IMG/VR virus record: IMGVR_UViG_3300036835_000105
Coordinates: 1-61,217 of that record
From: a virus
Taxonomy: Duplodnaviria > Caudoviricetes
Length of the DNA stretch: 61,217 nucleotides
Strand: one strand, 5' to 3'
In this document: piece after piece, positions 525-58,600 of the stretch
Layout of the letters: the number at the start of each line of letters is the position of its first letter
How positions within the stretch are numbered: position 1 is the first letter of the stretch
The notes under the pieces: generated by a model
Database searches by the model: none
What the model was told of the DNA's origin: nothing
What the model saw: only the letters and a program-made list of their open reading frames with translations
Position numbers and translations under genes: made by a program

Positions 525-740
525 TCAGCAACAGCTTGTCCCGCAGCCGCATTTCTTGATTATCTTACGCTTACACTTCGCACAAGCCACATATTGCGGC
601 AGCCACTCATACACACGAGTCTCCTTCCCGCACAGGAAGCACTCGAACGTCCCCATATACAGGTGGGCGGGAGGCCGGGGCTTGCGTTCCTTCCGTTCCT
701 TCCCTTCCTTCCGACGCGCTTCAACCCGGAGTCCCTCCAT
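525..740 (-). CDS. Small basic Cys-rich (Zn ribbon) protein
   Basis: CFLC...CAKC; ATG abuts a palindrome copy. Confidence 0.55.
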   Translation of the reverse strand: MEGLRVEARRKEGKERKERKPRPPAHLYMGTFECFLCGKETRVYEWLPQYVACAKCKRKIIKKCGCGTSCC

Positions 741-784
741 GTAGACTCTACATCCATCCGCTAATCCATCCGCTATCCATCCAG

Positions 785-1000
785 CTATGGCCTGAACTCC
801 TGCATGGTTTTGACAATCGAATCAACAAACTCCCGCTCCACCCCGCTGAGCCGCCACACTTCGCCCCGCAGGATCAGGTACAAAGTCATGCCTTCCCTGC
901 ACCTCATCTGCCCCAGAGTATGCACCCGCCAGCCCCACAGGCTGGCCGCCGCCCGAAAAGGTAACACCCAAAAGGACAGCAGAAACAAACGCCGCAGCAC
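785..1000 (-). CDS. Hypothetical protein
   Basis: ORF co-oriented in operon. Confidence 0.5.
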   Translation of the reverse strand: MLRRLFLLSFWVLPFRAAASLWGWRVHTLGQMRCREGMTLYLILRGEVWRLSGVEREFVDSIVKTMQEFRP

Positions 1001-1014
1001 AATCCAGCCCAGCC

Positions 1015-1449
1015 TTAAGGCACTTTTATGAACCTTGCATTGACATACGGCTTGCCCTCTTTATAGCTGGCTTTGATTTGATCAGCCGTCACCCCGTTTT
1101 CGAGCAACAGCCCCTTATCCAAAGTCCTCTTGCTCGACAGGCCGTTATAAACCAAGCCAATCTGGCCCCACCTCAGCCCCGCCAGCTCGAAGGCTGAGCA
1201 TATGCCGACCAGGGCCTCTTTGATCTCGCCCAGCCTTTCCGACTCCTTATCCATCCTGGCCTTCAGCTCCTGCGCTTCCGTCAGGAGCTTCTTGGCCGCT
1301 TCCATCGTGCCCTTGTCCAGGACACTAACCAGCGGCAACGACTCGCCCGTTACCGGCTTCTCGTCCTCCTCCTCCACCGGCCTGGGCGGCGGCAGATACT
1401 GCTTATGCAACCCCGCTGTAATCGGCATCAATCCCACGCCTCCATGCAA
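1015..1449 (-). CDS. Hypothetical protein (coiled-coil; start may be 1428)
   Basis: 144-aa ORF in replication operon. Confidence 0.7.
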   Translation of the reverse strand: MHGGVGLMPITAGLHKQYLPPPRPVEEEDEKPVTGESLPLVSVLDKGTMEAAKKLLTEAQELKARMDKESERLGEIKEALVGICSAFELAGLRWGQIGLVYNGLSSKRTLDKGLLLENGVTADQIKASYKEGKPYVNARFIKVP

Positions 1450-1607
1450 ATATGTATCGCTACCCCCTCCGTTGTCGGCAGCACCCGATACGCCCTTAGT
1501 TCCACCCGCAGGTGGTCGTCTATCATCCCGTCCAGCCAGCTCTCCGCTTCGTTGTCCGACGTGAACATCTCGCAGTAGTAGCTATGTGGCCTTATCCCTT
1601 CTGCCAT
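1428..1607 (-). CDS. Hypothetical protein
   Basis: ORF bridging polymerase and next gene. Confidence 0.5.
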   Translation of the reverse strand: MAEGIRPHSYYCEMFTSDNEAESWLDGMIDDHLRVELRAYRVLPTTEGVAIHICMEAWD

Positions 1608-3082
1608 CTCGTCAACACTTCCTTGTCGCTCTTGATCGGTGTTCGCCATGAGTTTTCTCCTGTCTCCTTATCCTCCATTACCCCTGAGAATCTGGCAACC
1701 ATCAGATCCCCAATTTCCTCCGCTATACTCTCCTCGGCCTCAACCAGCAACTGATCGTGTATGGTCAGCAACGGCCACACCTTTACCCCGGCCCCCTCTA
1801 ACATCTCGAAATCCTGATCCAATTCCCCCATCACTAGCTTGGTCTGTCCTGCCGAGGCGCTCTGTATAGGCATATTTCCTGCTTGTCTGAGTCCCGCACT
1901 CTTGATCCAACTATGAGTGCTATACACCTCAGGAACTCTTCTAACTCGCCCGAAAACGTCCCAGATATACCCATACCGTCTGGCTCTACGATGCTGTAGC
2001 TCCATGTAAGCCTCGACTTCGGGATATAGTCCGAACCATTTGTCGATAAAGGCATTGCATTGTTCCTCTGACCAAAACAACCCGCTCAACGCCAACTGCG
2101 CCTGCAACCCCACCGCTGTCGCTCCATACACGATCATGAAGTTGATGTTCTTGCAGGGCAATCGGTTGTATAGGGAGAAGTTGCTCCAGTCTCGAGCCTG
2201 TTCCTCCGTAAAGCTCCCGGCATCCTTCAGCCACTGGAGCATGGCATAGTGCCCCTCATCCAACCCGAACACCCTACACGCCGTATAACTATGAATGTCC
2301 TTGTCTTCCCTATACGCCTCGATCATGCTGGTTGCATTGGCGCAATGGGCTAAATCCCTTAACTCAATCTGGCTGAAATCACTACTCACCAAGCGGCACC
2401 CTGGACTGGCCAGAAACGCTTGCCGAATCCTCCCCCCTAACTTGCTCCTGGCCGGTATCTGCTGCAAATTGGGGTTCTTACTCGCCAACCGCCCCGTCTC
2501 CGTCCTGGTCATCAGCCACTCGGTATGCACCCGCCATGTAGACTCTACATGCACCTCTTCGCACAACGAGCAATATCCCTTTGGGTGCAGCCTCGCCTTT
2601 TGCGGTAAGGCATCGGCGAACGCCGACTTGAGCTTGCTACGCTCTCTGTAATGGAGAACCTTTTGGACAACCGGGTGGTCGTCACGGCAGAGTTCGAGCT
2701 GCTTCTTGCCGGTCGAAGCCTTCCCCTCTGCGGTCAGCTTAAGATTCCGGCCATTGCCTACCCCCAGCAGGTCGAAAAGAAGGATGCGTATCTGGAGGGC
2801 GCTATTTGCGTTGAGATCGGCGGTGCCCTGTTCATCTTCGATCTCGGCAGACTGGTGGCTGAACAGATCGAGTTTGTCAGCCGGGATGAACGATGCGATA
2901 TCCCGCTCTAACTCCTTCATCTCCTTCCCCAGCTCCACGCTGAACTCCCTCAGGTACTCGACATCCACCGCGATCCCATACCTGGACATCTTGCGGCACA
3001 TCCCGACCGGCAGCAGGTCCAACCTCCTGACGTTCTCCAGGTCCGGTCTCCCCACCACCTCTACTTCGCCAAATAAGCTCAT
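1592..3082 (-). CDS. polA: DNA polymerase family A, polymerase domain only
   Basis: TETGRLASKNPNLQQIP, motif A DFSQIELR, motif B RLPCKNINFMIVYG, motif C TIHDQL; start MSLFGEV overlaps the upstream stop (ATGA). Confidence 0.95.
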   Translation of the reverse strand: MSLFGEVEVVGRPDLENVRRLDLLPVGMCRKMSRYGIAVDVEYLREFSVELGKEMKELERDIASFIPADKLDLFSHQSAEIEDEQGTADLNANSALQIRILLFDLLGVGNGRNLKLTAEGKASTGKKQLELCRDDHPVVQKVLHYRERSKLKSAFADALPQKARLHPKGYCSLCEEVHVESTWRVHTEWLMTRTETGRLASKNPNLQQIPARSKLGGRIRQAFLASPGCRLVSSDFSQIELRDLAHCANATSMIEAYREDKDIHSYTACRVFGLDEGHYAMLQWLKDAGSFTEEQARDWSNFSLYNRLPCKNINFMIVYGATAVGLQAQLALSGLFWSEEQCNAFIDKWFGLYPEVEAYMELQHRRARRYGYIWDVFGRVRRVPEVYSTHSWIKSAGLRQAGNMPIQSASAGQTKLVMGELDQDFEMLEGAGVKVWPLLTIHDQLLVEAEESIAEEIGDLMVARFSGVMEDKETGENSWRTPIKSDKEVLTRWQKG

Positions 3083-3922: not shown

Positions 3923-5281
3923 TCAGTCGGCATCCCCGTCCCGGATCTGCCAGTAGCTGTCCTTTCTGCGTCGTTCAAGTTCTCGGGCAACCTGACCTGT
4001 CCAGTCAGCATCGCCGCATGCATACCGGGTAGCTTTCTCTATAGGGGCATTCCCAATGCCCAATATCGGGTACTTACCGATCCGCGCCTCTATGTGCGCT
4101 GTCATCCACTCATTCACTTCGTCATTCCAAAACTCGTCCAGCCTCAGCCAGGGGTCGTAGTCTCCTGTAGACTCTACATGGCGTATCAATCTATGCAGCA
4201 ATTGCTCCAGCGGCCCTCGCTTGACGGTCTCTTTAACCTTGGTCTTGAGCCGCTTGACCTCGATGAGGCTGAGATCCGCGTGGGCTATCTCTAATGCCTC
4301 GACCATCCAGAGCGTGAGCGCCTCGATGCTGTAGGGGAGAACGATGTCCTCCCAGCTGGTCATGTTGTAGCCGAAGAGCCTATAGACCAGCGGCTTCAAG
4401 CCTTGGGGGAGATTTCCGAGGTGGTATGCCTCTTGCATCGTGTCACGAAAACATGCAAGTACGATCCCCATGCGCTCCAGGTCAGCAAGGTCGTGTAGCG
4501 CGTTGTGTAGTACGCCTTGGACTCCTCTGAGCCGTGCTCCCAAGGCTCCAATTCCTTCGGCATCGGAGGAAAGTACCATGTACGCCAGCCCCGGACGCGG
4601 AGAAAACTGAACGCTATACGGGTCGTTACCATGTGTCTCAGTATCGATTGCCACCACCATTCCCAGCGGAATCTCATTGACCTCCCTCCCTCTCGCGATC
4701 CGGTAATCGGTCTGGTAATCACCATCGACGCCGCCATACACGCCATACAGGCCGCGTAGCCTGTCACCCAACCCTTCCCAGTCCTCCAGCAACTGGGTCA
4801 TCCAGCGGCTCTCATGCAGCCCCAGCGCCGGATGATACATTGGGACGACGATGCCTTCCCAGCCGTACAACTTTCCCCAGAACGGTATCCCGTGCTGCGT
4901 GTCGAGCTTTATCCCCGGCATCAACCTGCACGCCGATCCGCCCATGAGCATCACGATCAGCGGCTCCGTCCTCTCTAGCTCCCCCGGCAGATGGTGCTTG
5001 CCGCAGCACACCACCTCCGCATCCGTAGGCGTCCGGTTATTATCCGCCCAGCACCGTACTGCGTTAACCACCCTGACCTCGCACCGCTTCCAACCGGCAC
5101 GCGGCAAATAGGTCTCGTTCAGCTCCTGGCCGGTCTTCCCGACAAACACCCGTCTCAGCCTCTGTTCATCCCTACCCGGCCTCTCCCCCACAATCAACAC
5201 TTGCGCCGGTTGCGGCCCATCGCCTTCAATCGGCCTATACTTCCTTGGGCAGTTGTCGCAGTACGGACAGTAAGGGATCAT
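3923..5281 (-). CDS. Family-4-like uracil-DNA glycosylase fused to PolA-type 3'-5' exonuclease
   Basis: UDG: CPYCDNC, IVGERPG, FVGKTGQ, NAVRC, MYHPA. Exonuclease: AIDTET, HNALHDL, DTMQEAY, YACGDA. Confidence 0.9.
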   Translation of the reverse strand: MIPYCPYCDNCPRKYRPIEGDGPQPAQVLIVGERPGRDEQRLRRVFVGKTGQELNETYLPRAGWKRCEVRVVNAVRCWADNNRTPTDAEVVCCGKHHLPGELERTEPLIVMLMGGSACRLMPGIKLDTQHGIPFWGKLYGWEGIVVPMYHPALGLHESRWMTQLLEDWEGLGDRLRGLYGVYGGVDGDYQTDYRIARGREVNEIPLGMVVAIDTETHGNDPYSVQFSPRPGLAYMVLSSDAEGIGALGARLRGVQGVLHNALHDLADLERMGIVLACFRDTMQEAYHLGNLPQGLKPLVYRLFGYNMTSWEDIVLPYSIEALTLWMVEALEIAHADLSLIEVKRLKTKVKETVKRGPLEQLLHRLIRHVESTGDYDPWLRLDEFWNDEVNEWMTAHIEARIGKYPILGIGNAPIEKATRYACGDADWTGQVARELERRRKDSYWQIRDGDAD

Positions 5282-5294
5282 GTGCTTGTAGACT

Positions 5295-6065
5295 CTACAC
5301 GCGCTCCTTGTCGAGGGCCGCAATGATCTGTTCGGCCCCGTCTTTCGCGATGCCCCTCATTTGCGCCCACTCCCGTACCCCCGAGAACGCGGCGAACTCC
5401 ATAAACTCGCGGGGCGTCTTGAAGTTCCTCCCGATATCCCAAGCCTTCCTATCGACCCCCGGCAACTGAGCCGCCAGCTTCTCGGTCAGCCCCGGCTCCC
5501 GATTCAGCAAGCTGGCTTTGCCGCGCCGTATCGGAACATCCGGCCCCGGCGCATAGATCTCCCCGATGCTGCGGTGTTCTTTGAATTTCTTTTGCCACCA
5601 GTGGTAGAGTGCCGCGTACAACGCCGCTGTCTCTCGGGTCGAGGACGTCCTTAACAGCGCCACCCCGGACGCCACCACCAACCCGTTCAGGAACGCCTGG
5701 ATCTGCCTGTACGTACAGGCTTCCCCCCTCACGCTCCAGAGCGGCATCCACTTGCCGTTCCGCCAGATCTCCATCTCCCCGTTCTTACCCGGCTGGAAGA
5801 TGTCCTCGATCAGCAGGTATATGTAGTCGTAGCACTCCCACATTCCACGCAACTGGTGCCCGACCAGCCGTCCGCTGGTCATGCTGTTGACGATGTCGTT
5901 GAGCCGCTTCCGCTCCACCCCGACCATGCATGGCCCGTCCGGTCCATTCCCCTCCCACAGGGCATCCCCGAACTCCAGGTGCTGCTTGATGACCGGGAAG
6001 TCGTAAGTCTTGGTCAGACACTCAAAGAGAGCGGTGTCCTCGCGGTCGTCCAGGATTAGGCTCAT
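5295..6065 (-). CDS. ERCC4/XPF-family nuclease (resolvase-like)
   Basis: LDDRE...LEFGD...VERKRLND motif with HhH-like C-terminus. Confidence 0.85.
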   Translation of the reverse strand: MSLILDDREDTALFECLTKTYDFPVIKQHLEFGDALWEGNGPDGPCMVGVERKRLNDIVNSMTSGRLVGHQLRGMWECYDYIYLLIEDIFQPGKNGEMEIWRNGKWMPLWSVRGEACTYRQIQAFLNGLVVASGVALLRTSSTRETAALYAALYHWWQKKFKEHRSIGEIYAPGPDVPIRRGKASLLNREPGLTEKLAAQLPGVDRKAWDIGRNFKTPREFMEFAAFSGVREWAQMRGIAKDGAEQIIAALDKERV

Positions 6066-6327: not shown

Positions 6328-7436
6328 TGTTTGGCGGCGGCGGCCTCTTTCTCCATAAAACGCCTCATTTTGACCCCTGTATCGACGGCGTCCTCTTCTG
6401 CCTCGATGTCATATCGGTCAAACACGTTGTCGGTCAAATGGCCGCTGATCTGCATGGCTCGCTTCTTGCTGATCCCGGCCCTGACCATGTTCCTGACCGC
6501 TGTCCGGCGCGTGTCATGCATCAGTATGTGATCCAGCCCCGCGTTGTGCCGCGCCTTCTCAAACCCGGTCCTGGCCTGTTTCAGCCGCTTGCCCCGGTAC
6601 TGAAAAATGTACGGACATTTCGGATCGCGTGACTCCAGCGCCATCTGAAGATACTGCCGCATCTCTTCGGCATAGAGCGGCAGCGTATGCGCCTCGCCGT
6701 TCTTGGTGATCCGGTTCTTGGTCTTGGGGTCGAACCCCGGTATCTTGATGATGGGTTCGCTATAGCTTAGGTACGGCAGCGCCCAGTCCCACTGGAGCTT
6801 CAGCAGTTCGCCCTTCCTGATCCCCCAGTGATAGGCGAAACACCAGAGCATCTTGAGGTGATCCGGCAGCCACTGCCTGATGGCCAGATACTCCTCATGG
6901 CTGATAAAGCCTGTCCTGATCCCGGCCCGTTCGTCCATCTTCTTGATGGTGAAATCGGCCTTGGTCAGCTTGTCTTCCCGCGCCAGCTTCAGCGCCCGGT
7001 GCAGCCATGACACATGCCGGTTGATGGTGGCGTGCCCGACCTTGCCCTCTTCCAGCTTGAAGTCGATGTACTTCTTGACTTCCGTACTGTCCAGCTCCGA
7101 CAGATCCCGGTCCTTGAAATACTTCCCCAGGTGCTTCTTCCACTTGCGCGAAGTATCAGCCAGCGTCTCCCGGCTCTCCCTCCGGTAATCGGCCATCAGC
7201 AGATCGTGTAGACTCTCCACCGACAGCGCGACCGGCTTCTTCTTCTGTTCGTCCAGCTCGTTGCGCCATCGATCCAGCGCATCCGTTGCTTGCTTGCGCG
7301 GGTTCAGGCCCTCGATCTGGACGTATTTGTAGAGCGGCTTATCGGCCCACTCGGGGCGGTACTTCAACTGCCATAAGCCGTTCCCTCTGTCCCGGATGGT
7401 GCCGGTTCCGTAAGCGCGTTTTTTAGGTTTTGACAT
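6258..7436 (-). CDS. int: Tyrosine integrase
   Basis: GIRKGELL (R), TKN (K), HDTRR, ISGH, FDRY (Y); N-terminal arm-binding region. Confidence 0.95.
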   Translation of the reverse strand: MSKPKKRAYGTGTIRDRGNGLWQLKYRPEWADKPLYKYVQIEGLNPRKQATDALDRWRNELDEQKKKPVALSVESLHDLLMADYRRESRETLADTSRKWKKHLGKYFKDRDLSELDSTEVKKYIDFKLEEGKVGHATINRHVSWLHRALKLAREDKLTKADFTIKKMDERAGIRTGFISHEEYLAIRQWLPDHLKMLWCFAYHWGIRKGELLKLQWDWALPYLSYSEPIIKIPGFDPKTKNRITKNGEAHTLPLYAEEMRQYLQMALESRDPKCPYIFQYRGKRLKQARTGFEKARHNAGLDHILMHDTRRTAVRNMVRAGISKKRAMQISGHLTDNVFDRYDIEAEEDAVDTGVKMRRFMEKEAAAAKQLGAQLGAYEKEGGKGISRKLLN

Positions 7437-8728: not shown

Positions 8729-9385
8729 TCACTCCCCATAACCAGCCTCCCTCGCCTTGTCCAAATGCTTGAGAACCATGAGCCGTGTAGACTCTACATC
8801 AGGGGGCGGATAGCGAACTAGGTAACGCTTATATACCGGCCCCGAATTTCTGTAATTTCCATTGACAAAACAAATGTGATATCTCACTAGATTTGCTCCG
8901 TATCCCCAACAATAACCGCGACCCTGCTGACACCAATACCAGGATTCCCGCAATAATTCGTCGCCGGTTTGGACCTTTTTCCAGGTCAATTTAAATTCCT
9001 CAACACAAGGTTGATCACCGTGGTAGCTCCTCTCGCCCAGGCTTAAGTCCATAGGCGAGATGCCGTCGCAAGTCATCGCAACTCCCTCCCGAATCACCTC
9101 TCCCGGCTGCCAATGCATTGAAGGATAAAGACTTGCCGCAAATTCCTCGAACGCTATCCCTAACGCCATCTTGAGCGGCAAGCGTTCCTCATCCATGTCC
9201 GCTACGATTTTCATCAGCCCCGCCTGACCGGCCACAAAGCGCAATATGCCGGATAAATGCATCCCTTTTGTTCGTTCGGCCTCTTTAATCCGCCCGGTTA
9301 GCGCGATCTCACGGTCAATAGGGGATCTGATTTTCAAATCCCCTACGTCCAGACACACTTCGATCTCTTCCAGAATTACCGGCAT
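8729..9385 (-). CDS. PD-(D/E)xK (RecB/Cas4-like) exonuclease
   Basis: GIAFEE...TCDG...EEFKLT...QQGRGY; in recombination module. Confidence 0.75.
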   Translation of the reverse strand: MPVILEEIEVCLDVGDLKIRSPIDREIALTGRIKEAERTKGMHLSGILRFVAGQAGLMKIVADMDEERLPLKMALGIAFEEFAASLYPSMHWQPGEVIREGVAMTCDGISPMDLSLGERSYHGDQPCVEEFKLTWKKVQTGDELLRESWYWCQQGRGYCWGYGANLVRYHICFVNGNYRNSGPVYKRYLVRYPPPDVESTRLMVLKHLDKAREAGYGE

Positions 9386-10488: not shown

Positions 10489-12084
10489 TTACATCGTTAG
10501 CTTTTCCGGCCTCTTGGGTAGTGCCAATATACTATGGATTTTCAGCTTGCATCCAAAACGCCGCGCTTTCGAGAGCAACAACGGCAGCGTCTTATCCAGC
10601 ACGAAGGTCTCGCACCGATCATCCGGCGCTCTCCTGCTGCGCCCGATCATCTGTTCGAGGTCCAATAACGCGCAATAACTCCTGTAGTCCGAGTCGTTTA
10701 CCCGCTCCCTCATGACGCGAGACTCCGCGAAAGGATAAGGAGTTTTGGGGACGATCTGGTATTCACAACTGTCGTAGGCGAAGTCCCAGCCCGTCCCGAA
10801 GGAGGGGCTGACCAATACAGCCGGTGGTCGGGCTTGCCGGAAGCGTTCAGCCACCCGGTACGAATCATTGGCCGTATCGTTCCAAAACATGATTCGCGTA
10901 TGGCGGCTGAATTCCATAAGTTTCCGCATTCTGCCGTAACTTACGGTGTGTATTATGCCCTTTCTGTCGGATCGGGCATCGATTATCTCGTCAATTCTAT
11001 TTACTAACGTCCTATAATTATCATCTGTTGACTTGTAATTCAGTTTCACCGTGGGCAAATAATAGACCGGCGCTCTCTGCGGCGGCCAGCCGTTACTGAA
11101 GGTCTGGAACTCGAACTCGCCCTTATCCAGCCCGAGTAACTTCATGGTGTACGGATACAGCGTGGCGCTCATCAACAGCACCTTACTCACACCGCTCCAC
11201 AAATAGCCCGCGTAATTACCCGGCCAGATACAATCGAACGCTACGCCATCCTCACTTGCTTCCCAGGTCCAGCCGTTGTCCATTACGGCGATCCGGTCTA
11301 ACTTCCTCTTTAAGGCTTCCAGCTCCTCCAACCGGCTTCTCTCGATGTAACTCAGCGTATCCCTCGGGTACATCAGCAACGCTTCCAGTTCGGGCCGTAT
11401 CTCCTCGCACCGATCCTCGGCCCATCGCTTCCACATCTGGCCGGACTCCTCGTCCATCAACCCGTCGCCCTCGACCTTGCCCATCGCCTCATACTCGCCA
11501 TTAGATAGCCGGATAGCCAGAAACCCACTCAGCTCTTCCATCGCGTTATGCGCCTCATCGCATATCAGTAACTCAACCGGCTCCGGGCATTCTCCTGTAA
11601 CCTCCAATGCTTTCTTGTTGTTAGCCCTAGCGTGCAGCCAGTACGCATAATTGGTACTTACTAACTGGGCCTTCTTAGCCTCTTCATATGCCGCACCATA
11701 CGGGCACCCTAGTGTATTCAGGAACTTACAACCTTGCCTTGCCCCTTCCTCGCAACTTACCGGATCGCCCCGTTTGGTGGTGTAGACTCTACACGGATAG
11801 TTGGCTCGTCCACGAATATCGGTCATGCCAATCGAGCCAAACTCGGCCATCATCTGTTCCTGGAGGGCCTTAGTGGAAGTAAGATAGACCGCTTTCGCGT
11901 CCTGGACCTTAGCGACACTGACCCCTAACAGGCCCTTGCCGGTTCCGGTCGGCAGGTTCCCTCCGGTCCAGCGGCTGGACGACGCCAGGATGAAGTCCAG
12001 GGCCTCGGCCTGGGTCTCCCGGAAGCGTATAAATTTAGAGGGCAGCCCCAGATCGGCTGGGGCTATGTCCAGCAATAAAGACAT
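10489..12084 (-). CDS. DinG/XPD-like SF2 helicase
   Basis: Q motif FRETQ, PTGTGKG, RGRANYPC, Cys cluster, DEAH, MSAT, GWDF, QMIGRSRR. Confidence 0.9.
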   Translation of the reverse strand: MSLLLDIAPADLGLPSKFIRFRETQAEALDFILASSSRWTGGNLPTGTGKGLLGVSVAKVQDAKAVYLTSTKALQEQMMAEFGSIGMTDIRGRANYPCRVYTTKRGDPVSCEEGARQGCKFLNTLGCPYGAAYEEAKKAQLVSTNYAYWLHARANNKKALEVTGECPEPVELLICDEAHNAMEELSGFLAIRLSNGEYEAMGKVEGDGLMDEESGQMWKRWAEDRCEEIRPELEALLMYPRDTLSYIERSRLEELEALKRKLDRIAVMDNGWTWEASEDGVAFDCIWPGNYAGYLWSGVSKVLLMSATLYPYTMKLLGLDKGEFEFQTFSNGWPPQRAPVYYLPTVKLNYKSTDDNYRTLVNRIDEIIDARSDRKGIIHTVSYGRMRKLMEFSRHTRIMFWNDTANDSYRVAERFRQARPPAVLVSPSFGTGWDFAYDSCEYQIVPKTPYPFAESRVMRERVNDSDYRSYCALLDLEQMIGRSRRAPDDRCETFVLDKTLPLLLSKARRFGCKLKIHSILALPKRPEKLTM

Positions 12085-18035: not shown

Positions 18036-18854
18036 TTAGCCGGTGTATGGTTGAGGCGTCGGTAACTGGCCAACACCGCTTGTGAGGTAGTCATACGCTG
18101 ACGCTGTCGGTAGCTGGCCGAACTGGCCCACGTCGGCGGGCAAGCCAACCCCAGGAATTACACCACTCATACTCAGGTCAGGTGCCTTTGGCATACCTCC
18201 TCCAGTCGGCATGCCGCCCGTCAATCCAGCTGAGGCTATGCTGCCCGCCGCTTGCGCCAATTGCCCGATCATCTGATCCCTGGCCATCGTTTCCATCACG
18301 TTCTGCTGCCGCTGCGTAAGCGCTCCAGTCTGCGATAGCTGTTCCTGGTTCAAGCCGAGATTCGATATATCCAGCCCCAACCCAGCCAACTGATTCGCCA
18401 GCGTGCCCAACTGCCCCGTCGCCCCCTGTCTCGCTTGCGCCGCCAGATCACCGATCTGCTTCGTCTCCTGATAGGGCGCTTCCGCCAGCACCCCGGCCTT
18501 GCCGCCGCCCCGTGGTGCTTGGCTGATCATCTGCCGCGCCGCCGAGAAGCTGTCCTTGATGCGGTTGATCTCGGGCTGCATACTCTGCGTAACGTCGCCC
18601 TGGTCGCCCCTGGTCAGCGCCGTCAGATAGTTCAGCACCGGGGCCATCGCCCCCAGCCCCTGCGCGGTAGTAGCCCCGCCTGTCTGTAGGTTCTGCTGTC
18701 CCTGCGCCACCCCCAGGTTCTGCATGGAGTGCAGAAAGTTGGACATGGGGTCGTTGCTGGTAATGGGCTGCGGCTTGAACCCATAGACATTGGTCTTGCT
18801 GCCATCCATCCCGCCCTTGTTGCCCGCGAAAATGTCTGCTTGATTGACCGGCAT
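18036..18854 (-). CDS. DNA pilot/ejection protein
   Basis: G/Q/A-rich amphipathic composition typical of podovirus pilot proteins. Confidence 0.6.
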   Translation of the reverse strand: MPVNQADIFAGNKGGMDGSKTNVYGFKPQPITSNDPMSNFLHSMQNLGVAQGQQNLQTGGATTAQGLGAMAPVLNYLTALTRGDQGDVTQSMQPEINRIKDSFSAARQMISQAPRGGGKAGVLAEAPYQETKQIGDLAAQARQGATGQLGTLANQLAGLGLDISNLGLNQEQLSQTGALTQRQQNVMETMARDQMIGQLAQAAGSIASAGLTGGMPTGGGMPKAPDLSMSGVIPGVGLPADVGQFGQLPTASAYDYLTSGVGQLPTPQPYTG

Positions 18855-41692: not shown

Positions 41693-41920
41693 TTACTTAC
41701 TCCTTCTAGGACCGGACACCAACAGGTCGGTCGGATATTGCCCTCTGATCTTGCTATGCAGATACATGCCCTGCGACGGACTCTGCACGAAGTTATAGTA
41801 AGTGCTTTTATCGACGCCCCGGTATTGGTAAATAGACCCGTTGACAAACTGGATGACTAGGCTCTTAGTTTCGGGGTCGTAGTCGTAAGCCTGGATATGG
41901 TGCGATTGGGCGATTCTCAT
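41693..41920 (-). CDS. KTSC domain protein
   Basis: SHHIQAYDYD...LVIQFVNGSIYQYRGV...SPSQGMYLHSKIRGQY. Confidence 0.9.
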   Translation of the reverse strand: MRIAQSHHIQAYDYDPETKSLVIQFVNGSIYQYRGVDKSTYYNFVQSPSQGMYLHSKIRGQYPTDLLVSGPRRSK

Positions 41921-41935
41921 GTAGACTCTACATCC

Positions 41936-44116: not shown

Positions 44117-44678
44117 CCGCACCTTGCGGTGCGTTTAGCGGCAACTCTTCAGCTGGTTCATCCAATAACTTTGACATGTCAATTACGCGGGCATCCATCG
44201 ACTTGAAGCCGTTCAGCGTAGGCATAGCGATGGTATTGGCGGCCTGTGGATTGTTGTTGATGACAATCGACGCTCCCTTCTTGTCGGGCAGTGCGCCGGT
44301 TGCGCGTAAGAATAACTCGCGGTCCTTGTAAGCCGCCGGACTCTCAATCGCATACTGCGCGGTCTGATGGATCACTTTCGGGTGATTGATGGACGCGCTG
44401 ATGGTAGACTCCGCTTGCTTATGCTGCCACACCTCACCGGCCACCGCCGAGATCAAGTCTCGCGGCTTCACCCCCGACAAGTCGCAGAGCATCTCAGGCA
44501 TAACGGTGCGCCTCTCACCCAAAGGTAATGCCTCGTAGGTCTTGATGTACTTCTGCATATCCTCGTCGCCGCCCTTTGCGGCTAGGTCGGCGTAGTAGAT
44601 GTAGTTGCGCCATGTAGGCTCTACATGCCGGAAGGCGATAGCCAAAGGGGTTTGGGCCGGTTCCAGGGCGACCAGCAT
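44094..44678 (-). CDS. Putative terminase small subunit (start uncertain; ORF open to 44870)
   Basis: Directly upstream of terL; helical. Confidence 0.5.
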   Translation of the reverse strand: MLVALEPAQTPLAIAFRHVEPTWRNYIYYADLAAKGGDEDMQKYIKTYEALPLGERRTVMPEMLCDLSGVKPRDLISAVAGEVWQHKQAESTISASINHPKVIHQTAQYAIESPAAYKDRELFLRATGALPDKKGASIVINNNPQAANTIAMPTLNGFKSMDARVIDMSKLLDEPAEELPLNAPQGADVFEEAD

Positions 44679-45144: not shown

Positions 45145-45431
45145 GCTTCACGCTTCTTTTTCGGTGTAGACTCTACAGGAACCGCTTCCTCTTCCTTCGC
45201 TTCCTCGGCGGCGAAGACCTCGGAAAGGGTCTGGGGGACGGTGATGAAGGTGTCGCGGTCCTCGCGAAGGGGGATGACTTGGGAGGGATCGGCGGCACGG
45301 ATGTGGAAGTCGAAGTCGTGGCCGAAGATCCGTAACTCGTATTTGCCGTCTGTCCAAATGTAGGTGACGATAGCGGCCAGCGGCTCGTCGTCTAAGCGGG
45401 AGCGGTATTGAACGATAGATCCGACTTGCAT
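45132..45431 (-). CDS. Hypothetical protein (SH3/KOW-like start)
   Basis: MQVGSIVQY...AAIVT; AAGGAG SD. Confidence 0.7.
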   Translation of the reverse strand: MQVGSIVQYRSRLDDEPLAAIVTYIWTDGKYELRIFGHDFDFHIRAADPSQVIPLREDRDTFITVPQTLSEVFAAEEAKEEEAVPVESTPKKKREAWPR

Positions 45432-46976: not shown

Positions 46977-48044
46977 ATGACACAAATGGACCTGCCGCTG
47001 AAGGAGCTGGTGAAAACCTCCGATTACACGCCCGAACAGTTGAAGGCGATGTATGACGTGATTGAGAAGAAGGATCATGATTTGTGGGTGAGGTGCTACC
47101 CCCGGATCTACTCGGACTATAAGCCGGGGCTGTATGGGTCGGCTAAAGACCCGGCCCGACAGATGTGGTGCTGCGCGTCAAAAGTGGAGATGGGGTTTCT
47201 GGGGGACAGCGAGAAGTACGAGATGATGTGGGCCAGCCAGATAGCCAGATCGCGGTGCCCGCAATATTGGGTGACGCCGGATCTGGTGGAAGCGATTATG
47301 CAAACCAAGCCGCCTATGAACTTGGCGTGGCATGACATGAATTTGCCGCATGAAGCGGCCTCCTTCATGCTGCCCAAGGGGGCCATAACGCATAAGAAGG
47401 ACGGGGATCTTGTATTTGTGTCGTATACGCGCAATAAACAAGGCGTGGATATACCGTCCCTGGCGCGGAAGGGGCCGAGGCATTTCACGGCCCTGAATGG
47501 CTCCTTCTGTGTATTCGCCAAGACACCGGCCTTCTTCATCCACTGGAATATGCCGCATGACGTATTCCCGGTAGTCAATCTATTAGATATTGATACGGCC
47601 ATACGGCAGCATGAGCATCACATCCATTCGTCCGGCTGGCTGACCGCGACGATGGATTCGGACGATACGGAGGTAGGGATCAAGACCACCCACCTGATCT
47701 TCGGCCTCATCCTCTTTATGCTGCGTAAACCGGAGCTGATCGACGGCGGGGAGCTGATCAAGAGAATACCAGCCAAGAAAGGGGACGCGCCCAAAGAGTT
47801 CTGGACCCCCAAGGTCATAGGCAGGAATTACCGGATCAGGCGGATCGGGCAAGACCTGGGCGGCCACCACGCCTCGCCCAGGGGGCACTGGGTTACGGGG
47901 TTTTGGAGAGACCAGCATTATGGAGTCAAATACAGCCTTATCAAGGAGATATGGGTAGAACCGTACTGGAGGGGCGGGGATGAAGGTGGGGATGAAGAGG
48001 GTGATGTAGAGTCTACACGAAAGGAGAAGAATGCGGAACATTAA
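46977..48044 (+). CDS. Conserved phage hypothetical protein
   Basis: C-terminal HASPRGHWVTGFWRDQHYG...IWVEPYWRG motif. Confidence 0.75.
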   Translation: MTQMDLPLKELVKTSDYTPEQLKAMYDVIEKKDHDLWVRCYPRIYSDYKPGLYGSAKDPARQMWCCASKVEMGFLGDSEKYEMMWASQIARSRCPQYWVTPDLVEAIMQTKPPMNLAWHDMNLPHEAASFMLPKGAITHKKDGDLVFVSYTRNKQGVDIPSLARKGPRHFTALNGSFCVFAKTPAFFIHWNMPHDVFPVVNLLDIDTAIRQHEHHIHSSGWLTATMDSDDTEVGIKTTHLIFGLILFMLRKPELIDGGELIKRIPAKKGDAPKEFWTPKVIGRNYRIRRIGQDLGGHHASPRGHWVTGFWRDQHYGVKYSLIKEIWVEPYWRGGDEGGDEEGDVESTRKEKNAEH

Positions 48045-49457: not shown

Positions 49458-50534
49458 ACGTAAGAAAGCATAGCTGCATTCGTAACCGGGAGCAAGCTTG
49501 TATAATTACCACCGAAAGGAGGATGCCGCTAACCAAATACACAGGGACTAGGTCTTTTACACGGACAAGAGGCGCTGGTTGACATATATATGTTGGCCAG
49601 CGCTTTTACTTTCCACCGGCGAGCTTCTGTGGAGCGAAGCCCGAAGGGCTGAGCGGAGCAGAGCGAGCCACTGAGATGTTGAAAGCGAGCCGATGGAGAG
49701 CCACTAAAATGTCGAGCTAACGAGATCCTGGTCCGCAACGGGTCCGACCGGCTCACTCTATAAAACCGGCCAGCCCCGTTGTGTCGGAGGTGAAATAAGG
49801 GTACTCGATTGCGTAATTGGAAGCTAGTACTGGGGCGTAAATAGTCGCAAGTATATAGAAGGATCACCTTCGGTGATCCTTCTTATTAAGTAGCGACTAC
49901 TGGGGCGAGTCCTAGCTTGTGTTGTTTATTACATTTATTTCCCGTGAAATTGCGATTGAGTTGAGGTTACGTGTAGAGTCTACATGGGATGGAAAATTAG
50001 TGGCAATCGAATTTTACTAACCAAAAATTTAACGTCTCTCAAAAAGTTTTATACCTTTCAAGTCAAGTCGGACTCTTAATCGCGCCGCCCCTGGACAACC
50101 CAGGGCTGCCGCGTCGGCTCCTGGTCGGGCCGATCGGGCCGTCCCTATGGGGACAGGACAGGGCTGGTGGGGACAGGGGAGGACAGGACAGGGGCCGAAC
50201 TGTCGATAAGCGACAATATCACCAGTGTTTCGGCCATGGATCGGGACTAAGCGCTAACCAGGGCTGGATGGGCGCTCAATGGCGATTGGCATTAAGCACT
50301 CCCATCCAGATAGCTCCTGACCAGTGCCGGGTAGGACAGGGTACGAAACGGACCAACCCCCACCCCATCCTAGGGGCCGATCGGTACTAGTACGAACGCT
50401 AAATTACCTTTATTTTCAACTAGTAAACCGGCAGTACGTTGACACAAAATCGGCGTCCGTGGTTTGATCGAATTGTGGCAAACGCAATGCCACAAATCAC
50501 ACAGCCCCTCGAGGGGCGGAAAGAGTAGCAGAGT

Positions 50535-51868: not shown

Positions 51869-52578
51869 GCAAATCCTTCCCTATAACTAACCCGTTGGCT
51901 ATAGCCGCTGAGCGGAGCAACAACGCCAAAATCGGCGCTATGTCGGCTACCTACGCCACGCAGCGCACCTGTCCGGCTACCTGCCCGTTGCGCGATAACG
52001 GCTGCTACGCCGAATCCGGCTTCGTAGGCATTACCACCCGGCGCTTGAACCGGGCCGCGAAACGCCTTCGCAAAGCAGTAGCCTTTAACGCTGCAAAGCA
52101 AGAGGCGCAAGCCATCGACGCACTATCCGGCGCTTATCCGTTACGGCTCCATATCGTCGGAGACTGCACAACGAACCGTGACGCACAACTGCTGTCCAAA
52201 GCAGCTACGCGCTACACCAAGCGCGGCGGATGTAGAGTCTACACCTACACCCATTCCTGGCGCACAATCCGCCGCAAGTCCTGGGGCGTTATCAACGTCC
52301 TGGCTTCTTGCGAAACCCTGGCCCAGGTCAAGGAAGCCCACAAACTGGGCTATGCCGCGTCACTCGTCGTGGCCGAGCATCGGCAGGAGAAGCTCTACAA
52401 ACTCGGGGGTGTAAGGCTTCTCCCCTGTCCGGCTCAAACCAAGCACATCACTTGTTCGGAATGCAGACTCTGCATGAATGACGAGTACTTGCACAAGTCC
52501 AAAACCGTCATAGCCTTCGCGGCTCATGGCGCTAACGCAAACAAAGCAAAGCAGTTAATTCAGATTGGAGTAATATAA
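51865..52578 (+). CDS. Gp88-like Cys-rich protein
   Basis: TCPATCPLRDNGCYA, RLHIVGD, YTYTH, CPAQ, TCSECRLC, IAFAAHG. Confidence 0.7.
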   Translation: MSKSFPITNPLAIAAERSNNAKIGAMSATYATQRTCPATCPLRDNGCYAESGFVGITTRRLNRAAKRLRKAVAFNAAKQEAQAIDALSGAYPLRLHIVGDCTTNRDAQLLSKAATRYTKRGGCRVYTYTHSWRTIRRKSWGVINVLASCETLAQVKEAHKLGYAASLVVAEHRQEKLYKLGGVRLLPCPAQTKHITCSECRLCMNDEYLHKSKTVIAFAAHGANANKAKQLIQIGVI

Positions 52579-53421: not shown

Positions 53422-53651
53422 CACACTACACCGTTGAAATCGTAACGCGCCACGACCTGACGGGGGTGGCCTACTAGACGTTGCCGAAGTCGCAAAAGCA
53501 CATCCCGCCTGTCGGCTCGATAGAGCCGACCAGCGATGTGCGCCACAAGCTTGCCGGAACGCACTATTACCCGGCACGGGGCGGGTCTCACTGCTACTCA
53601 CCCGCCCCGTTTCTGTCCATGTAGAGTCTACATGGCGCTAAAACTTTTCGC

Positions 53652-55111: not shown

Positions 55112-56079
55112 GCGACTTACCAAGCCACTTACCCAGGCGTCCCGACGACAAGTTCACAGGCGCTTTAGCGCCTGTGAATGCGGAGTCGCTTAGCATAAAC
55201 AGCGCGGAGCCGCTTAGCGTATCCTCCGGTCGGCTGATCAAGGCCGCACTAAGTGGGCTGTCTAACAATTCGTGTAGAGTCTACAGGCGGCACTTAGACG
55301 CATTTATGGCTTGGCTGAAAGTTACTAACTTGCAGCTAACCAGGGAGGTAGTATCCGGCTATCTCGATGCTCATTACGGTCATGATCCGAGTAACTTCAA
55401 TCAGGCTCTGTCGGCTGTCAAGCGGCTGGCTAATCAGGCCGCCCATAACGGCTGGCTGGACTGGCAGATAGCGCACTCGATTGACACCATTAAGAGCAAA
55501 GTGGTAAGGGGAGCGCGGGCTGGTAACTGGCTCTCCCTACCACAGGCCAAGAGGCTGTTGAACGCTCCCGGCACGATTAGCGTATCAGGAAAGCGGGATA
55601 AGGCGGTATTGGCGCTGTTGCTGGGCTGCGGCATCCGGCGCGAAGAGTTATCCGAGGCCCTGGTTAAGCAATTTGCGGAGAGGGAAGGCAGGTATTATCT
55701 GCTGGACCTGCATGGGAAGGGGGGCAGGATCAGGACCGTGGCCGTACCTCCGTGGGCGGTCGAGGTGGTCCTGGAATGGCTGGCGGTGTATGCCGCTAAG
55801 GAGAATGCTCCCCTGGTGTGCAGCTTCCTGTTCAACGGGGGGTTTAGGGGGAAGCTGAGCGTCTCAGCCATCTGGGATATCGTCAGCCACTGGAGCAAAC
55901 GGACTGGCGTGCCGATAGCCCCGCATGACCTGAGGCGAACCTATAGCCGCTTAGCCAGAGATCAGGGAGCGCCTATCGAAGTCATACAGAAGTCGTTGGG
56001 CCACAGTAATATAGCGACTACCCAGCGGTATCTGGGGGCGACCGATCAGGCCAATGCGGGGGACTGGTTCGAGGTATGA
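55108..56079 (+). CDS. Second tyrosine recombinase (Xer/resolvase-like)
   Basis: RDKAVLALLLGCGIRREEL, GKGGRIRTV, PHDLRRT, LGHSNIATTQRY. Confidence 0.92.
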   Translation: MSDLPSHLPRRPDDKFTGALAPVNAESLSINSAEPLSVSSGRLIKAALSGLSNNSCRVYRRHLDAFMAWLKVTNLQLTREVVSGYLDAHYGHDPSNFNQALSAVKRLANQAAHNGWLDWQIAHSIDTIKSKVVRGARAGNWLSLPQAKRLLNAPGTISVSGKRDKAVLALLLGCGIRREELSEALVKQFAEREGRYYLLDLHGKGGRIRTVAVPPWAVEVVLEWLAVYAAKENAPLVCSFLFNGGFRGKLSVSAIWDIVSHWSKRTGVPIAPHDLRRTYSRLARDQGAPIEVIQKSLGHSNIATTQRYLGATDQANAGDWFEV

Positions 56080-56321
56080 AGACCGCCTTATGCGCCTACT
56101 GCGGCAAGACGATCTACTGGGACGAGAAGAGAAGGGAGTGGCGGCACGAGACACCGACACGCGACAATGCGGGGCTGATGTGCGTGAAGGTCTCGTTCGC
56201 CACGCCGCGCAAGACGCCGCGCAAGGGAAGTATTGAGAAATAGCCGTCTTTCGCAATTAGACGAGCAAGGTTGAATTGTCAGGGCCGGGAGGATGCTAGA
56301 TACCTTCCGGCCCTTTCCGTT

Positions 56322-56828
56322 TCAATGGAGATGCCTTTCCGCCCCGAATCGGCGGTTCTCCTTGTGTTCCTCGCAACTGCCCGCCTGCCGCTCAATATCC
56401 CCCTGCCTGCGGAAGTACATCATCTGGCCGCATTCCGTGCATCCGGCTTCCCACATGCCTTCCTCCACCACCCAGCGGGTGACGAAGAGTCTGCCGCAGC
56501 TTTGGTCCTCTAAGCGGACGGCGGGGTGTTTGTGGCGGCGGATGCAGCCGCAGCTGTAAGCGTTGCGGTAGTAGAGCCGGTAGTATTGCTCCCGGAATAG
56601 CTTGCCGCATATGCCTCCCTTCTTGCGCTTGTTGGGCGCGATGCATCTGACGACGTAGTCGCGGTTGGTGCGGCGCTGCGCCGACTTGGCTATCGGCTCC
56701 ACCACCTCCACGTAATTGATCACTTCCCCCGGCTGGAAGCCCCGGCGCACAGCCGGTCCTTCCAGCGTTAGGGGGCTGGTCTTCTCAGCTTCTCTCTCCC
56801 CTGCATGAAATCGTTCGAATATATCCAT
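56322..56828 (-). CDS. Cys-rich hypothetical protein (resembles HNH/AP2-associated N-terminal repeats)
   Basis: GICGK, SCGC, GRLFV, CTECG. Confidence 0.55.
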   Translation of the reverse strand: MDIFERFHAGEREAEKTSPLTLEGPAVRRGFQPGEVINYVEVVEPIAKSAQRRTNRDYVVRCIAPNKRKKGGICGKLFREQYYRLYYRNAYSCGCIRRHKHPAVRLEDQSCGRLFVTRWVVEEGMWEAGCTECGQMMYFRRQGDIERQAGSCEEHKENRRFGAERHLH

Positions 56829-57234
56829 TCCTCAAATTACCACCAAATCGTGTTGTTTATTAACATGTTGCTTATCTATTATTAAGATTAAAAAAAAATA
56901 TATACACTCAATCACTCTCTCTCAGTGTCTCTATACCTGTCGGCGCGGATCATAGTTGTAATAGTGATTTCAACAACACAAATGTGGCAATTTATTGGGT
57001 TTTGTGTAAAGTGATGTTCCGGGAACCACAGTTGTAATAAAGAATTGAATAGTACTAGGAGTTAGTACCGGATCATAAACGTAATAAACTACAGGTTTTG
57101 GCCCAGTTGGACCCAGTCCCCGCTAGTGCCTTACCACTAGCGGAGAGGCCCCGTGTAGAGTCTAGCGATGTGGTATGAATTACATTTGGCGGTAGCGAGT
57201 TTTTCGGTACTAGGCTTGAAAGTTCGGAGGAGCG

Positions 57235-57651
57235 ATGAGACGCTTTGAGGTGTCAGGTCAAGAGATGATTGTGGCGAAAGATAAACAGGAGCTAATCAGC
57301 CAGCCCTCATCTGTGGAGGAGGAGCTGGTCTTAATAGAGCGGGGGGAGGATGCCGTCTTGCATCGCGACCACCTGAGAAGAGGCCGGGGCAGACGCTCTA
57401 TCTTGTTCCCGGACTTGAACATAACCGCTACTGCCGAGAGGTTGGGGATCACCAAAAGTCACTTGGCAAAAGTACTAACCGGCCAAAACAAACCATCCCT
57501 GGCTCTAGCCAAAAAACTGGCAGATGTTTTAAACGTAGATCTTGCATTTGTTGCATTGTTGGGCGACAATGTGATCGCGGATGAACCGAAGCCGCCCACG
57601 AAAAAAACTAGAAAGAGGAACCGAAATGCCGAAAGCTACCCTGGAGTTTGA
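57235..57651 (+). CDS. XRE-family HTH regulator
   Basis: NITATAERLGITKSHLAKVLTGQNKPSLALAKKLADVL. Confidence 0.85.
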   Translation: MRRFEVSGQEMIVAKDKQELISQPSSVEEELVLIERGEDAVLHRDHLRRGRGRRSILFPDLNITATAERLGITKSHLAKVLTGQNKPSLALAKKLADVLNVDLAFVALLGDNVIADEPKPPTKKTRKRNRNAESYPGV

Positions 57652-58600
57652 AAATAGCGGAGAGTACAGGATGCTTCCTGTAGACTCTATACACACTGAT
57701 GAAGTCACCGAGGTGAGGTCGCGTAAGGCGAATCCCGCCGCCGAGGCCAAGAAGGTCGCGGAGCTGGCCACGTCGATGGAGAGCGAGGGCCAGATCCAGC
57801 CCATTGTGGTGAGGCCGGACGGCGCTGCCGATGCCTGGAAGATCATCGCCGGGGCGCGTCGTTGCGCGGCTGGCCGGGTCATCCAGACCAAGACCGGCAA
57901 GCCCTACCTGATCAAGGCCATGATCGTCCAGAAGACGGACGCCGAGGCGCGTAAGGCCGCGATTCATGAGAACCTGCAACGCGAGAACTTCACCGCCCCC
58001 GAATTGGCGCGTTTGATTGCCGATATGCGGGAGCGCAATGGCTGGCAGAATGCGGCCAATTGGAGTGATCTGGTGGCTAAAGAACTCGGTGTTAGCCGCG
58101 CTACCGTCACTGAACACTACAAGCTGCTTCAGTTGAAGCCGGAACTGTTGAAGAAGGGCGAGTCGGGCCAGATGTCGGCTCAGTCCCTGCTGTTGACCGC
58201 TGGCGTGGCCGAAACCAGACAGGATGCGGTCATCAAACGCGCCGAGGAGCTGGCTGAGAAGGAGGAGAAGAAGGCCCCCAAATCCGACGCGAAGGCTAAG
58301 GGCGCGGAGGAGGAGAAGGGCAAGGTCAAACACAAGCACGTCCTCAAGGCGGCTCGTGAACAGGACGCGCTGAAGGATTACAAGCCCCGTAATCGCGGCG
58401 AAATCATGGCCTTCGCGGATGAGATCCTGGAGTCGGCTGATCCCTATCACCCCTTGATCCAGGACTATTTCAAGACCTTCCGCGACAAGTGGGCGACGGG
58501 CCGGGTCGGGGATCGCGGCCTTTTGAATAAGCTGGACGCCATCAATGAGGCTCTGGGCGAGAGCAAGTCCAAGTCCAAGAAGTCTGCCCCGGCGGCCTAA
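57626..58600 (+). CDS. parB: ParB/Spo0J/KorB-family CTPase DNA-binding protein
   Basis: ELATSMESEGQIQPIVV, IIAGARRCAA (GxRR box), ENLQRENF, HTH VAKELGVSRATVTEHYKLL. Confidence 0.88.
   Translation: MPKATLEFENSGEYRMLPVDSIHTDEVTEVRSRKANPAAEAKKVAELATSMESEGQIQPIVVRPDGAADAWKIIAGARRCAAGRVIQTKTGKPYLIKAMIVQKTDAEARKAAIHENLQRENFTAPELARLIADMRERNGWQNAANWSDLVAKELGVSRATVTEHYKLLQLKPELLKKGESGQMSAQSLLLTAGVAETRQDAVIKRAEELAEKEEKKAPKSDAKAKGAEEEKGKVKHKHVLKAAREQDALKDYKPRNRGEIMAFADEILESADPYHPLIQDYFKTFRDKWATGRVGDRGLLNKLDAINEALGESKSKSKKSAPAA

Follow-up and report, generated by a model that had tools for sequence, protein, structure and literature searches.

A 61,217-nucleotide stretch of viral DNA (Duplodnaviria; Caudoviricetes; IMG/VR record IMGVR_UViG_3300036835_000105, positions 1 to 61,217), to which we refer as a whole as the window, carries the 13-bp palindrome TGTAGASTCTACA at about 25 sites that are dispersed over the genome of a temperate phage. 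Very probably, these palindromes bind a symmetric protein and are functional. The binder that we favour, with about an even chance of being the right one as judged from sequence comparison, is the phage's own orphan ParB-family protein (encoded at 57581-58600), for which the palindromes would serve as loading sites of the kind used by KorB and Noc. ParB clamps loading at genome-wide palindromes had been proposed in a sequence-only reading of the same DNA, and our analysis partly supports this interpretation.

All 20 perfect copies listed in that reading were recovered at their coordinates (Table 1), compared to none in 100 dinucleotide-preserving shuffles. Scanning with up to two mismatches resulted in 26 sites, while 0.5 were expected. 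The five variants listed earlier proved to be real, four of them with one mismatch (7207, 40881, 44613 and 57679) and one with two (57154), and a sixth one with two mismatches was added at 52462. The full site is C-R-TGTAGASTCTACA-Y-G, a 17-bp palindrome, and conservation ends there. When 76 perfect copies from phages and from the bacterial islands described below were pooled, position -2 was C in 100 of the 152 half-sites and position -1 was G or A in 129 of them.

To describe the placement of the motif, we counted 94 sites in nine motif-bearing genomes, using approximate gene calls. Most sites are intragenic (69 of 94, 73%). The remaining 25 are intergenic, which is about 3-fold more than the 7.7 expected, and 22 of the 94 are located near gene starts (8.3 expected). 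Within genes, the core was read as V-(E/D)-S-T in 53 cases and as C-R-(V/L)-Y in 16 cases, whereas the third frame, which contains TAG, was not used in any of the 69. In substance, this bears out the earlier statement on the reading frames, and the motif does provide the TAG stop codon of the ERCC4 gene (Table 1). The central base on the coding strand showed a mild bias (G:C 44:25). Regular spacing was not significant, with a coefficient of variation of the gaps of 0.75 versus 0.95 for random sets, 9% of which were equally even.

The palindrome and the ParB protein in related phages

Relatives of the phage were collected from IMG/VR by terminase, which resulted in 23 related loci; ten whole or partial genomes were examined, followed by four more. 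The 13-mer is frequent in G001, G004, G005, G008, G010 and G011, with 19 perfect copies in G001, seven in G008 and five in G005. The variant CGTAGASTCTACG is present in G009 (10 copies), TGTAG..CTACA is retained around a variable centre in G021 and G280, and the distant G022 (terminase identity 26%) contains only the core TAGASTCTA, in 12 copies compared to about 0.9 expected. No copy was detected in G002, G003 and G006 and a single one in G007, and none of these four genomes is enriched in a substitute dyad motif.

The palindromes are old and kept by selection at the DNA level. Eight of the nine G001 sites that map to orthologous genes lie within 20 bp of a site in the window, and the sites in the polymerase, helicase, integrase, 1205-aa and scaffold genes recur in genomes with proteins that are 40-55% identical. 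According to codon alignments, the H-V-E-S-T stretch of the polymerase is kept in G007 with the codons GTA GAG AGT ACA for V-E-S-T, which break the palindrome, and V-V-D-S-T of the scaffold-like protein is kept in G004 and G007 with codons that break it as well. Since other codons serve for these residues in motif-free relatives, it is the DNA that is under selection, in agreement with the sequence-only reading.

A gene family present in all seven complete motif-bearing genomes and absent from all four motif-free genomes was not found; gene 1015-1449 was considered as a motif-matched candidate and rejected, as it is also present in G007. Both the motif and the whole polymerase/ParB module are missing in G002 and G006. 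A terminase-profile scan of reference genomes revealed no prophage relatives. The two ParB-less relatives contain asymmetric 10-mers with about 15 copies each (CGGTTCACTC in G002 and CGGCTCGCTC in G006), which may represent another dispersed-site system in the same clade. In addition to the main palindrome, G010 carries TAAC-N2-GTTA, with 10 copies in 29 kb compared to 0.16 expected.

The ParB of the window is a Spo0J/Noc/KorB-type protein with a helix-turn-helix (HTH) domain and a predicted CTPase, which bears out the earlier assignment as a genuine ParB. Its gene is the second one of a conserved early module, in which it stands between XRE and a replicative helicase. Pfam ParB_N was matched over its cut-off (E 5.8e-11), and the family profile matched Spo0J (3e-26), Noc (1e-24) and KorB (4e-14) across the N domain and the HTH. 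The protein carries the sequences GARRCAA and ENLQR; within the family, GxxRxxA is found in 10 of 10 ParBs and ENxxR in 7 of 10. Its structure model has a mean pLDDT (predicted local distance difference test) of 80, with values of about 90 for the helices at 161-184, and a helical C-terminal domain. In the ParBs of G005, G021 and G022, Ala or Ser replaces the Glu of ENxxR, which in canonical ParB catalyses the hydrolysis of CTP, and these proteins may bind CTP with slow hydrolysis.

In line with the sequence-only reading, a ParA partner was not seen. The ParA-binding motif [LFI]G[KR]G[LFI] is present in 0 of 10 family ParBs, and a crude Walker-A scan together with Pfam on about 50 open reading frames (ORFs), which included part of the small ones, revealed no ParA-like gene. 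Within called genes, the only match to GxxGxGK[ST] was the AAA_24 protein. Based on the missing ParA-binding motif and the lack of a ParA family among the ORFs scanned, type I partition (ParABS, N15 SopAB) was rejected. A role as activator of a thymine dioxygenase (5mYOX) was rejected as well, due to the presence of an HTH in the ParB and the lack of a TET/JBP family among the ORFs scanned; the 5mYOX system pairs the dioxygenase with a ParB lacking a DNA-binding domain (PMC13229309).

ParB is favoured as the binder because of its covariation with the motif and its distribution among the phages. The phage sequence G-V-S-R aligns with G170-K171-S172-R173 of Caulobacter ParB, in which R173 bonds the outer guanine of parS (TGTT...) and a change of R173 re-targets the protein (PMC7383237). 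TGTAG-N3-CTACA is present in all eight genomes with an S-R-A helix (21, 20, 11, 5, 6, 4, 10 and 1 copies; about 0.03 expected in each). Three genomes have another residue at the position of the Arg: S-V-A goes with CGTAG in G009, E-L-T with the lack of a fixed flank in G022, and S-T-A with the lack of the motif in G003. In both genomes without ParB (G002 and G006), the motif is absent. Across these sequences, motif variants track the variants of the ParB recognition helix. A single-protein ParB scan of viral contigs gave no match. With ParB profiles, seven loci were retrieved from viruses and 11 from metagenomes, most of which were already known records.

The position of sites relative to parB also speaks for ParB. 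In five of the seven motif-bearing genomes having XRE, and likewise in three metagenome loci, a site precedes the XRE-parB operon by 38-390 bp, and its distance from the sigma-70-like promoter of the operon varies, as is the case for KorB operators.

Binding by ParB, the use of CTP and the effect of binding are what we infer from this analysis. ParB dimers would recognise the 17-bp site via their HTH, and the site-bound protein would close into a CTP clamp, like KorB, Noc and BisD. With about 25 loading sites at a mean spacing of 2.3 kb, ParB could occupy the whole 61-kb genome. Through the site upstream of the XRE-parB operon it would regulate its own expression, and the many sites beside gene starts would allow genome-wide control of transcription, either for silencing in the lysogen or for timing during infection. 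Compaction or marking of the phage DNA are alternative outputs.

Islands in Terriglobia and rival candidate binders

The same palindrome occurs in bacterial genomes. A search of one genome per species with the 15-mer GTGTAGASTCTACAC resulted in 116 stretches, and 14 of the 80 matches listed belong to Acidobacteriota. Five of these acidobacterial genomes carry 8, 2, 4, 1 and 1 perfect copies. With up to one mismatch, we counted 10 sites in G024 and seven in G026, compared to three each for a reversed control pattern, and four in the island of G025. Clustered copies are confined to bounded stretches of 15-25 kb with copy-free flanks. Other genomes were sampled from the class (200) and from the family (60), and a perfect copy was found in none of them. 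As the sampled genomes do not contain it, the palindrome is not a host-wide word, a possibility that the sequence-only reading had raised.

The genes behind the island sites encode an ATP-dependent DNA ligase, HNH_2, DinB_2, HIT, SDR and PilZ proteins, and the cargo also includes integrases, transposases, a RES-Xre toxin-antitoxin pair as well as HNH and GIY-YIG nucleases. In the G024 island (C55:1-29465), six palindromes are accompanied by an integrase and by two RES-domain proteins with an antitoxin of the Xre/MbcA type, and its helicase-like gene is seemingly split (ORFs 25418-26224 and 26061-26660).

These islands and G007 weigh against ParB as the binder, together with several details of the protein and of its covariation with the motif. 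The island palindrome is the identical 17-bp sequence at a density similar to that in the phage (about one per 3-5 kb), and profile searches of the islands, which matched integrases and one weak helicase-like ORF, revealed no homologue of the phage ParB, XRE or helicase. The ParBs of the island genomes are chromosomal proteins with the canonical G-K-[DS]-R-S-T helix, in addition to one unrelated 715-aa ParB_N protein. Most island sites precede a gene start by 7-100 bp, and the pairing of a site with the DNA ligase gene is kept in two genomes; this promoter-proximal position and the conserved pairing suit an ordinary operator of another regulator. Among the phages, the parB-less G002 and G006 lack the motif, but the parB-less islands keep it at similar density, which comes near to an outcome that the sequence-only reading had named as refuting its interpretation.

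Among the phages, G003 has an intact ParB and no site, and G007 has an S-R-A ParB and only one. The comparison of motif and ParB HTH across relatives that the sequence-only reading had suggested speaks in part for ParB and in part against it. Furthermore, the covariation comprises three independent changes only and follows the phylogeny of the clade, so that any vertically inherited gene would correlate, and the base changed in G009 is T1 and not the G expected for the Arg contact. HTH_ParB alone is a weak match, with 19.3 bits versus a Pfam cut-off of 22.6. Either the binder is not ParB, or the islands are ParB-less elements or remnants which use the phage ParB in trans.

A regulator from outside the phage module, encoded by the host or by a Terriglobia mobile island, is an unlikely binder, but one to be taken seriously. 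The palindrome would be its operator and the phage would tap its regulon, with many copies allowing the regulator to silence the prophage or to time its genes; phage GIL01, for example, uses the LexA of its host. Such a regulator would be consistent with identical sites in islands that lack the phage-type ParB, XRE and helicase, with the promoter-proximal island sites and the kept ligase pairing, with the roughly 3-fold enrichment of phage sites between genes and near starts, and with G003 and G007, which retain the whole module and have lost the sites. However, the sampled class and family genomes had no perfect copy, and in the positive genomes every copy is located in an island, which makes a regulator of the core genome unlikely. 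Moreover, about 60 island proteins were scanned without finding a common DNA-binding gene, and small ORFs adjoining the sites showed nothing common to islands and phages beyond chance-level matches (E up to 0.05). An outside regulator also leaves unexplained why the outer bases track the ParB helix and why the motif is absent from module-less relatives, and it has to accommodate that most phage sites are intragenic.

LexA itself was rejected, as the lexA promoters of G024, G025 and G026 do not contain the motif and have other conserved sequences, and as every copy with up to one mismatch is found in an island. Upstream of lexA, all three genomes share TTGACTTTCG-N-TTTATTCGCCAA, which includes a TTCG-N7-TTCG direct repeat. 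This sequence resembles the direct-repeat LexA box that reportedly exists in Acidobacterium.

It is rather improbable that the palindrome is an address common to mobile elements, in the sense that the phage ParB clamps also load in trans on the ParB-less islands of the host. In that case, infection or induction of the phage would rewire the islands or, alternatively, the islands would parasitise the phage in a satellite-like manner, borrowing its ParB for their regulation, copying or protection. If true, this would be a trans-acting ParB regulon across separate mobile elements.

We also consider the XRE-family protein of the module a doubtful candidate. It would act as a phage repressor with dispersed operators, comparable to the stoperators of Cluster A phages, dozens of 13-bp sites, many of them off promoters, through which one phage protein silences the prophage. 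Its HTH was detected with an E-value of 5.5e-10, the gene adjoins parB as the first module gene in nine genomes, and a site is found upstream of its own gene in five of seven genomes. The phage is temperate with two integrases, and a palindrome of 13-17 bp suits dimers of the Cro/CI type. In contrast, G022 contains the core motif and ParB without XRE beside parB, its only XRE match being weak and 5 kb off (E 3.6e-6), which makes XRE less likely as the binder. XRE could conceivably be a KorA-like co-repressor, as the sequence-only reading had suggested; its gene lies beside parB in nine genomes, but not in the distant, motif-bearing G022. XRE is also present in G003 and G007 despite their zero and one site, and a homologue is missing in the islands. 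The XRE promoters of G007 and G008 bear other small palindromes over -35/-10, which are likelier to be its own operators, whereas the motif is situated at a variable distance of 38-390 bp upstream of the promoter and not on it. Many short sites dispersed in a temperate phage are indeed reminiscent of stoperators, but these are asymmetric and oriented with transcription (PMC4351075), whereas the sites here are perfect, symmetric palindromes with a bias of the central base only; the stoperator-like roadblock that the sequence-only reading had offered as an alternative was dropped for this reason.

Loading of the winged-helix helicase of the module, with the sites as dispersed replication starts for two hexamers positioned head to head, is very unlikely. 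The protein consists of a P-loop core and a C-terminal winged helix, its model (Atlas) resembles Prim-Pol, Toprim and MCM-type proteins in their helicase parts, and it is present in every complete motif-bearing genome. Furthermore, it is the only module protein with a weak relative in an island (28.5 bits, E 9e-8, in the ORF set of one island). However, this match fails at the genome scale and other islands are without it, the helicase is also encoded in G003 and G007 despite their zero and one site, and its recognition helix does not track the motif variants. An origin for it is more plausibly sought in the iteron-like repeats that adjoin the module in both the window and G009, and we know of no precedent for about 25 origins in 61 kb.

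Hardly any weight is left for a promoter element, an RNA hairpin or a nicking or cleavage site instead of a protein operator: each half contains TAGAST, which fits a loose -10 element (TANNNT), and four sites of the window abut or overlap an ATG in addition to the enrichment near gene starts, but no -35 or other flank is conserved past +/-8, an RNA hairpin would have a stem of only 5 bp and a loop of 3 nt, the sites are mostly in genes (73%), nicking at a palindrome would affect both strands, and the strict dyad symmetry with compensating flanks (TG..CA to CG..CG in G009) argues for a dimeric protein.

Sites and genes of the phage genome

The window is a complete genome of a temperate soil phage. 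Its ends overlap by 127 bp, and this terminal repeat identifies it as a complete, circularly assembled genome with a circle of 61,090 bp. Among cultured phages, two from Tunturiibacter (Acidobacteriota) come closest, with a portal identity of 30%, and the phage collection contained no relative at the nucleotide level. The leftward arm comprises the genes from about 46.0 kb down to 1.0 kb, in the order terminase, portal and scaffold-like gene, tail-region genes and replication block. The latter consists of a DEAD_2 helicase, the AAA_24 protein, an integrase by a tRNA-Leu, an ERCC4 nuclease, a UDG/exonuclease and DNA polymerase A. The rightward arm extends from 46.0 kb to the end of the genome and includes many small ORFs without assigned function. 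The sites and the main genes are summarised in Table 1.

Table 1. Palindromic sites and selected features of the window.
Feature	Position	Strand	Context
Perfect site	740..752		convergence zone of both transcription arms
Perfect site	2537..2549		in DNA polymerase A, H-V-E-S-T; orthologous copies in G001, G005, G009
Perfect site	4166..4178		in UDG/3'-5' exonuclease gene
Perfect site	5287..5299		ERCC4/UDG-exo junction; motif gives the ERCC4 TAG stop (5295-5297)
1-mismatch site	7207..7219		in integrase 6258-7436
Perfect site	8786..8798		near 3' end of gene 8729-9385
Perfect site	11781..11793		in DEAD_2/XPD-like helicase, C-R-V-Y; orthologous copy in G001
Perfect site	16758..16770		in gene 15798-18023
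Perfect site	18854..18866		abuts start codon of gene 18036-18854
Perfect site	27797..27809		in 1205-aa gene, R-V-E-S-T; orthologous copies in G001, G004, G005
Perfect site	32510..32522		in gene 31583-32923
Perfect site	34220..34232		intergenic, 31 bp upstream of gene 33149-34189; orthologous copies in G001, G010
Perfect site	37299..37311		in scaffold-like gene, V-V-D-S-T; same residues with other codons in G004, G007
Perfect site	38709..38721		abuts start of ORF 38503-38709
1-mismatch site	40881..40893		in portal gene
Perfect site	41920..41932		between terminase stop and start of ORF 41693-41920
1-mismatch site	44613..44625		in gene 44094-44870
Perfect site	45165..45177		13 bp upstream of ORF 44924-45151
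Perfect site	48005..48017		13 bp upstream of ORF 48031-48387
Perfect site	49972..49984		intergenic
Perfect site	52231..52243		in DUF7227 gene
2-mismatch site TGCAGACTCTGCA	52462..52474		absent from the earlier list
Perfect site	53620..53632		intergenic
Perfect site	55273..55285		in Xer-like integrase, C-R-V-Y; orthologous copies in G001, G004
2-mismatch site	57154..57166		68 bp upstream of XRE-parB operon
1-mismatch site	57679..57691		5' part of parB
Portal	38970-41099		leftward arm
Terminase large subunit	41936-44122		leftward arm
Xer-like integrase	55108-56079		rightward arm
AT-rich gap with iteron-like repeats	56829..57234		upstream of XRE; candidate origin or regulatory region
XRE-family HTH protein	57235..57651	+	first gene of conserved XRE-ParB-helicase module
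Orphan ParB-family protein (longest ORF)	57581..58600	+	N-terminal CTPase fold, HTH G-V-S-R-A-T, helical C-terminal domain; candidate binder
P-loop helicase with C-terminal winged helix	58889..60088	+	resembles helicase part of primase-helicase fusions

The helicase is probably the replication initiator. The AT-rich gap of the window contains three AGTTGTAATA/AACGTAATAA-like repeats, and tandem repeats are found at the equivalent place upstream of XRE in G009 (three times GGGTCAAGTAAAT and five times GACGAGGTAGGAC). Judged by their sequence and position, both sets are candidate origin iterons for the neighbouring helicase.

The phage encodes two integrase-family genes, the Xer-like one and a tyrosine integrase (6258-7436). 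A tRNA-Leu(CAA) adjoins the latter, and the stretch 6178-7436 is the probable attachment region. A tail-region protein of 1138 aa (12381-15797, minus strand) has a C-terminal ADP-ribosyltransferase domain (PF03496, E 2e-12, residues 965-1126), and a fragment of the same family adjoins the palindrome in one Terriglobia genome. One soil RNA library yielded contigs with exact matches to parts of the XRE, ParB, 49125-49867 and 60151-61099 genes (span 44239-61058), which as assembled sequences are no proof of transcription. In contigs of two DNA runs, position 47755 is joined to 60550 via nine other letters, skipping 12.8 kb with the accessory arm, integrase, XRE, ParB and helicase; the shorter side is only 21 letters long, so that the joint may stem from another organism.

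Dispersed palindromes in known systems

KorB of the IncP-1 plasmid RK2 also works in partition, together with the ParA homologue IncC, and has about 12 sites on this plasmid. In contrast, the phage has no ParA among the ORFs scanned and no ParA-binding motif, and its sites are about 25 in number and mostly intragenic. Both systems have in common a ParB-family protein, which is a CTPase in KorB and a predicted one in the phage, a 13-bp palindrome with a central G/C and the presence of a gene for a small HTH protein, a putative partner in the phage. The site sequence is unrelated, however, the phage integrates, and its ParB has a helical C-terminal domain. The KorB site consists of a 13-bp core with central G/C (oligonucleotide TTTAGCGGCTAAA), and its operators, whose distance to promoters ranges between a few bp and over 1 kb, act by clamp sliding (PMC11790492).

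Noc of Bacillus subtilis is described as an orphan ParB paralogue and CTPase with no ParA partner and many dispersed 16-bp palindromes (PMC8429893, PMC7383237). The dispersed palindromes and the Noc match of the phage ParB profile are similarities to this system. However, Noc is a chromosomal division factor with a membrane-targeting helix, and we saw no hint of such a role in the phage, whose half-site (8 bp plus the central base) is unlike that of Noc in sequence. BisD of ICEclc is a ParB-like CTP clamp which spreads over about 50 kb from two intragenic palindromic bisS sites and controls promoters (PMC12409273). It differs from the phage system in having two loading sites instead of about 25, an additional activator domain, the partner BisC and a ParA-like gene nearby.

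The closest observation in phages comes from the Cluster O mycobacteriophages (Corndog), which carry over 30 instances of the 17-bp dyad repeat TGTTCGGNNNCCGAACA, about one third of them coding, and encode a ParB-like protein without a ParA (PMC4351075). In this paper, the repeats have no assigned function, a dimeric binder is predicted, and a link between repeats and ParB is not drawn. Dispersed 17-bp dyads and a ParB-like protein without ParA are thus shared with the phage described here, whereas sequence, host phylum and lineage are unrelated and Cluster O, as described there, has no integrase. In the phage described here, the sites co-vary with the ParB helix and are also present in host islands.

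ParB-type clamps acting on dispersed or distal palindromes without ParA-driven segregation are established by KorB, BisD and Noc (PMC11790492, PMC12409273, PMC7383237). Prophages often carry orphan ParBs, hardly any of which has been assigned a function (PMC12704722), and the dispersed dyad repeats of Cluster O have been unexplained for a decade (PMC4351075). In the open-access literature, we found no paper that ties a phage ParB to genome-wide palindromes. The clade described here offers a concrete candidate link between orphan ParBs and dispersed dyads, combining a canonical CTPase-type ParB, a sharp 17-bp site and co-changing variants of both, and it offers natural controls in the form of relatives without ParB and relatives with ParB and no sites. 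To our knowledge, hardly anything has been learned about the biology of Acidobacteriota phages. Binding by ParB would make the phage, from Acidobacteriota, the first example among phages of a whole-genome network in the style of KorB, Noc and BisD. Should the binder be another protein, the same observations would suggest a new regulator common to phages and islands of the Terriglobia.

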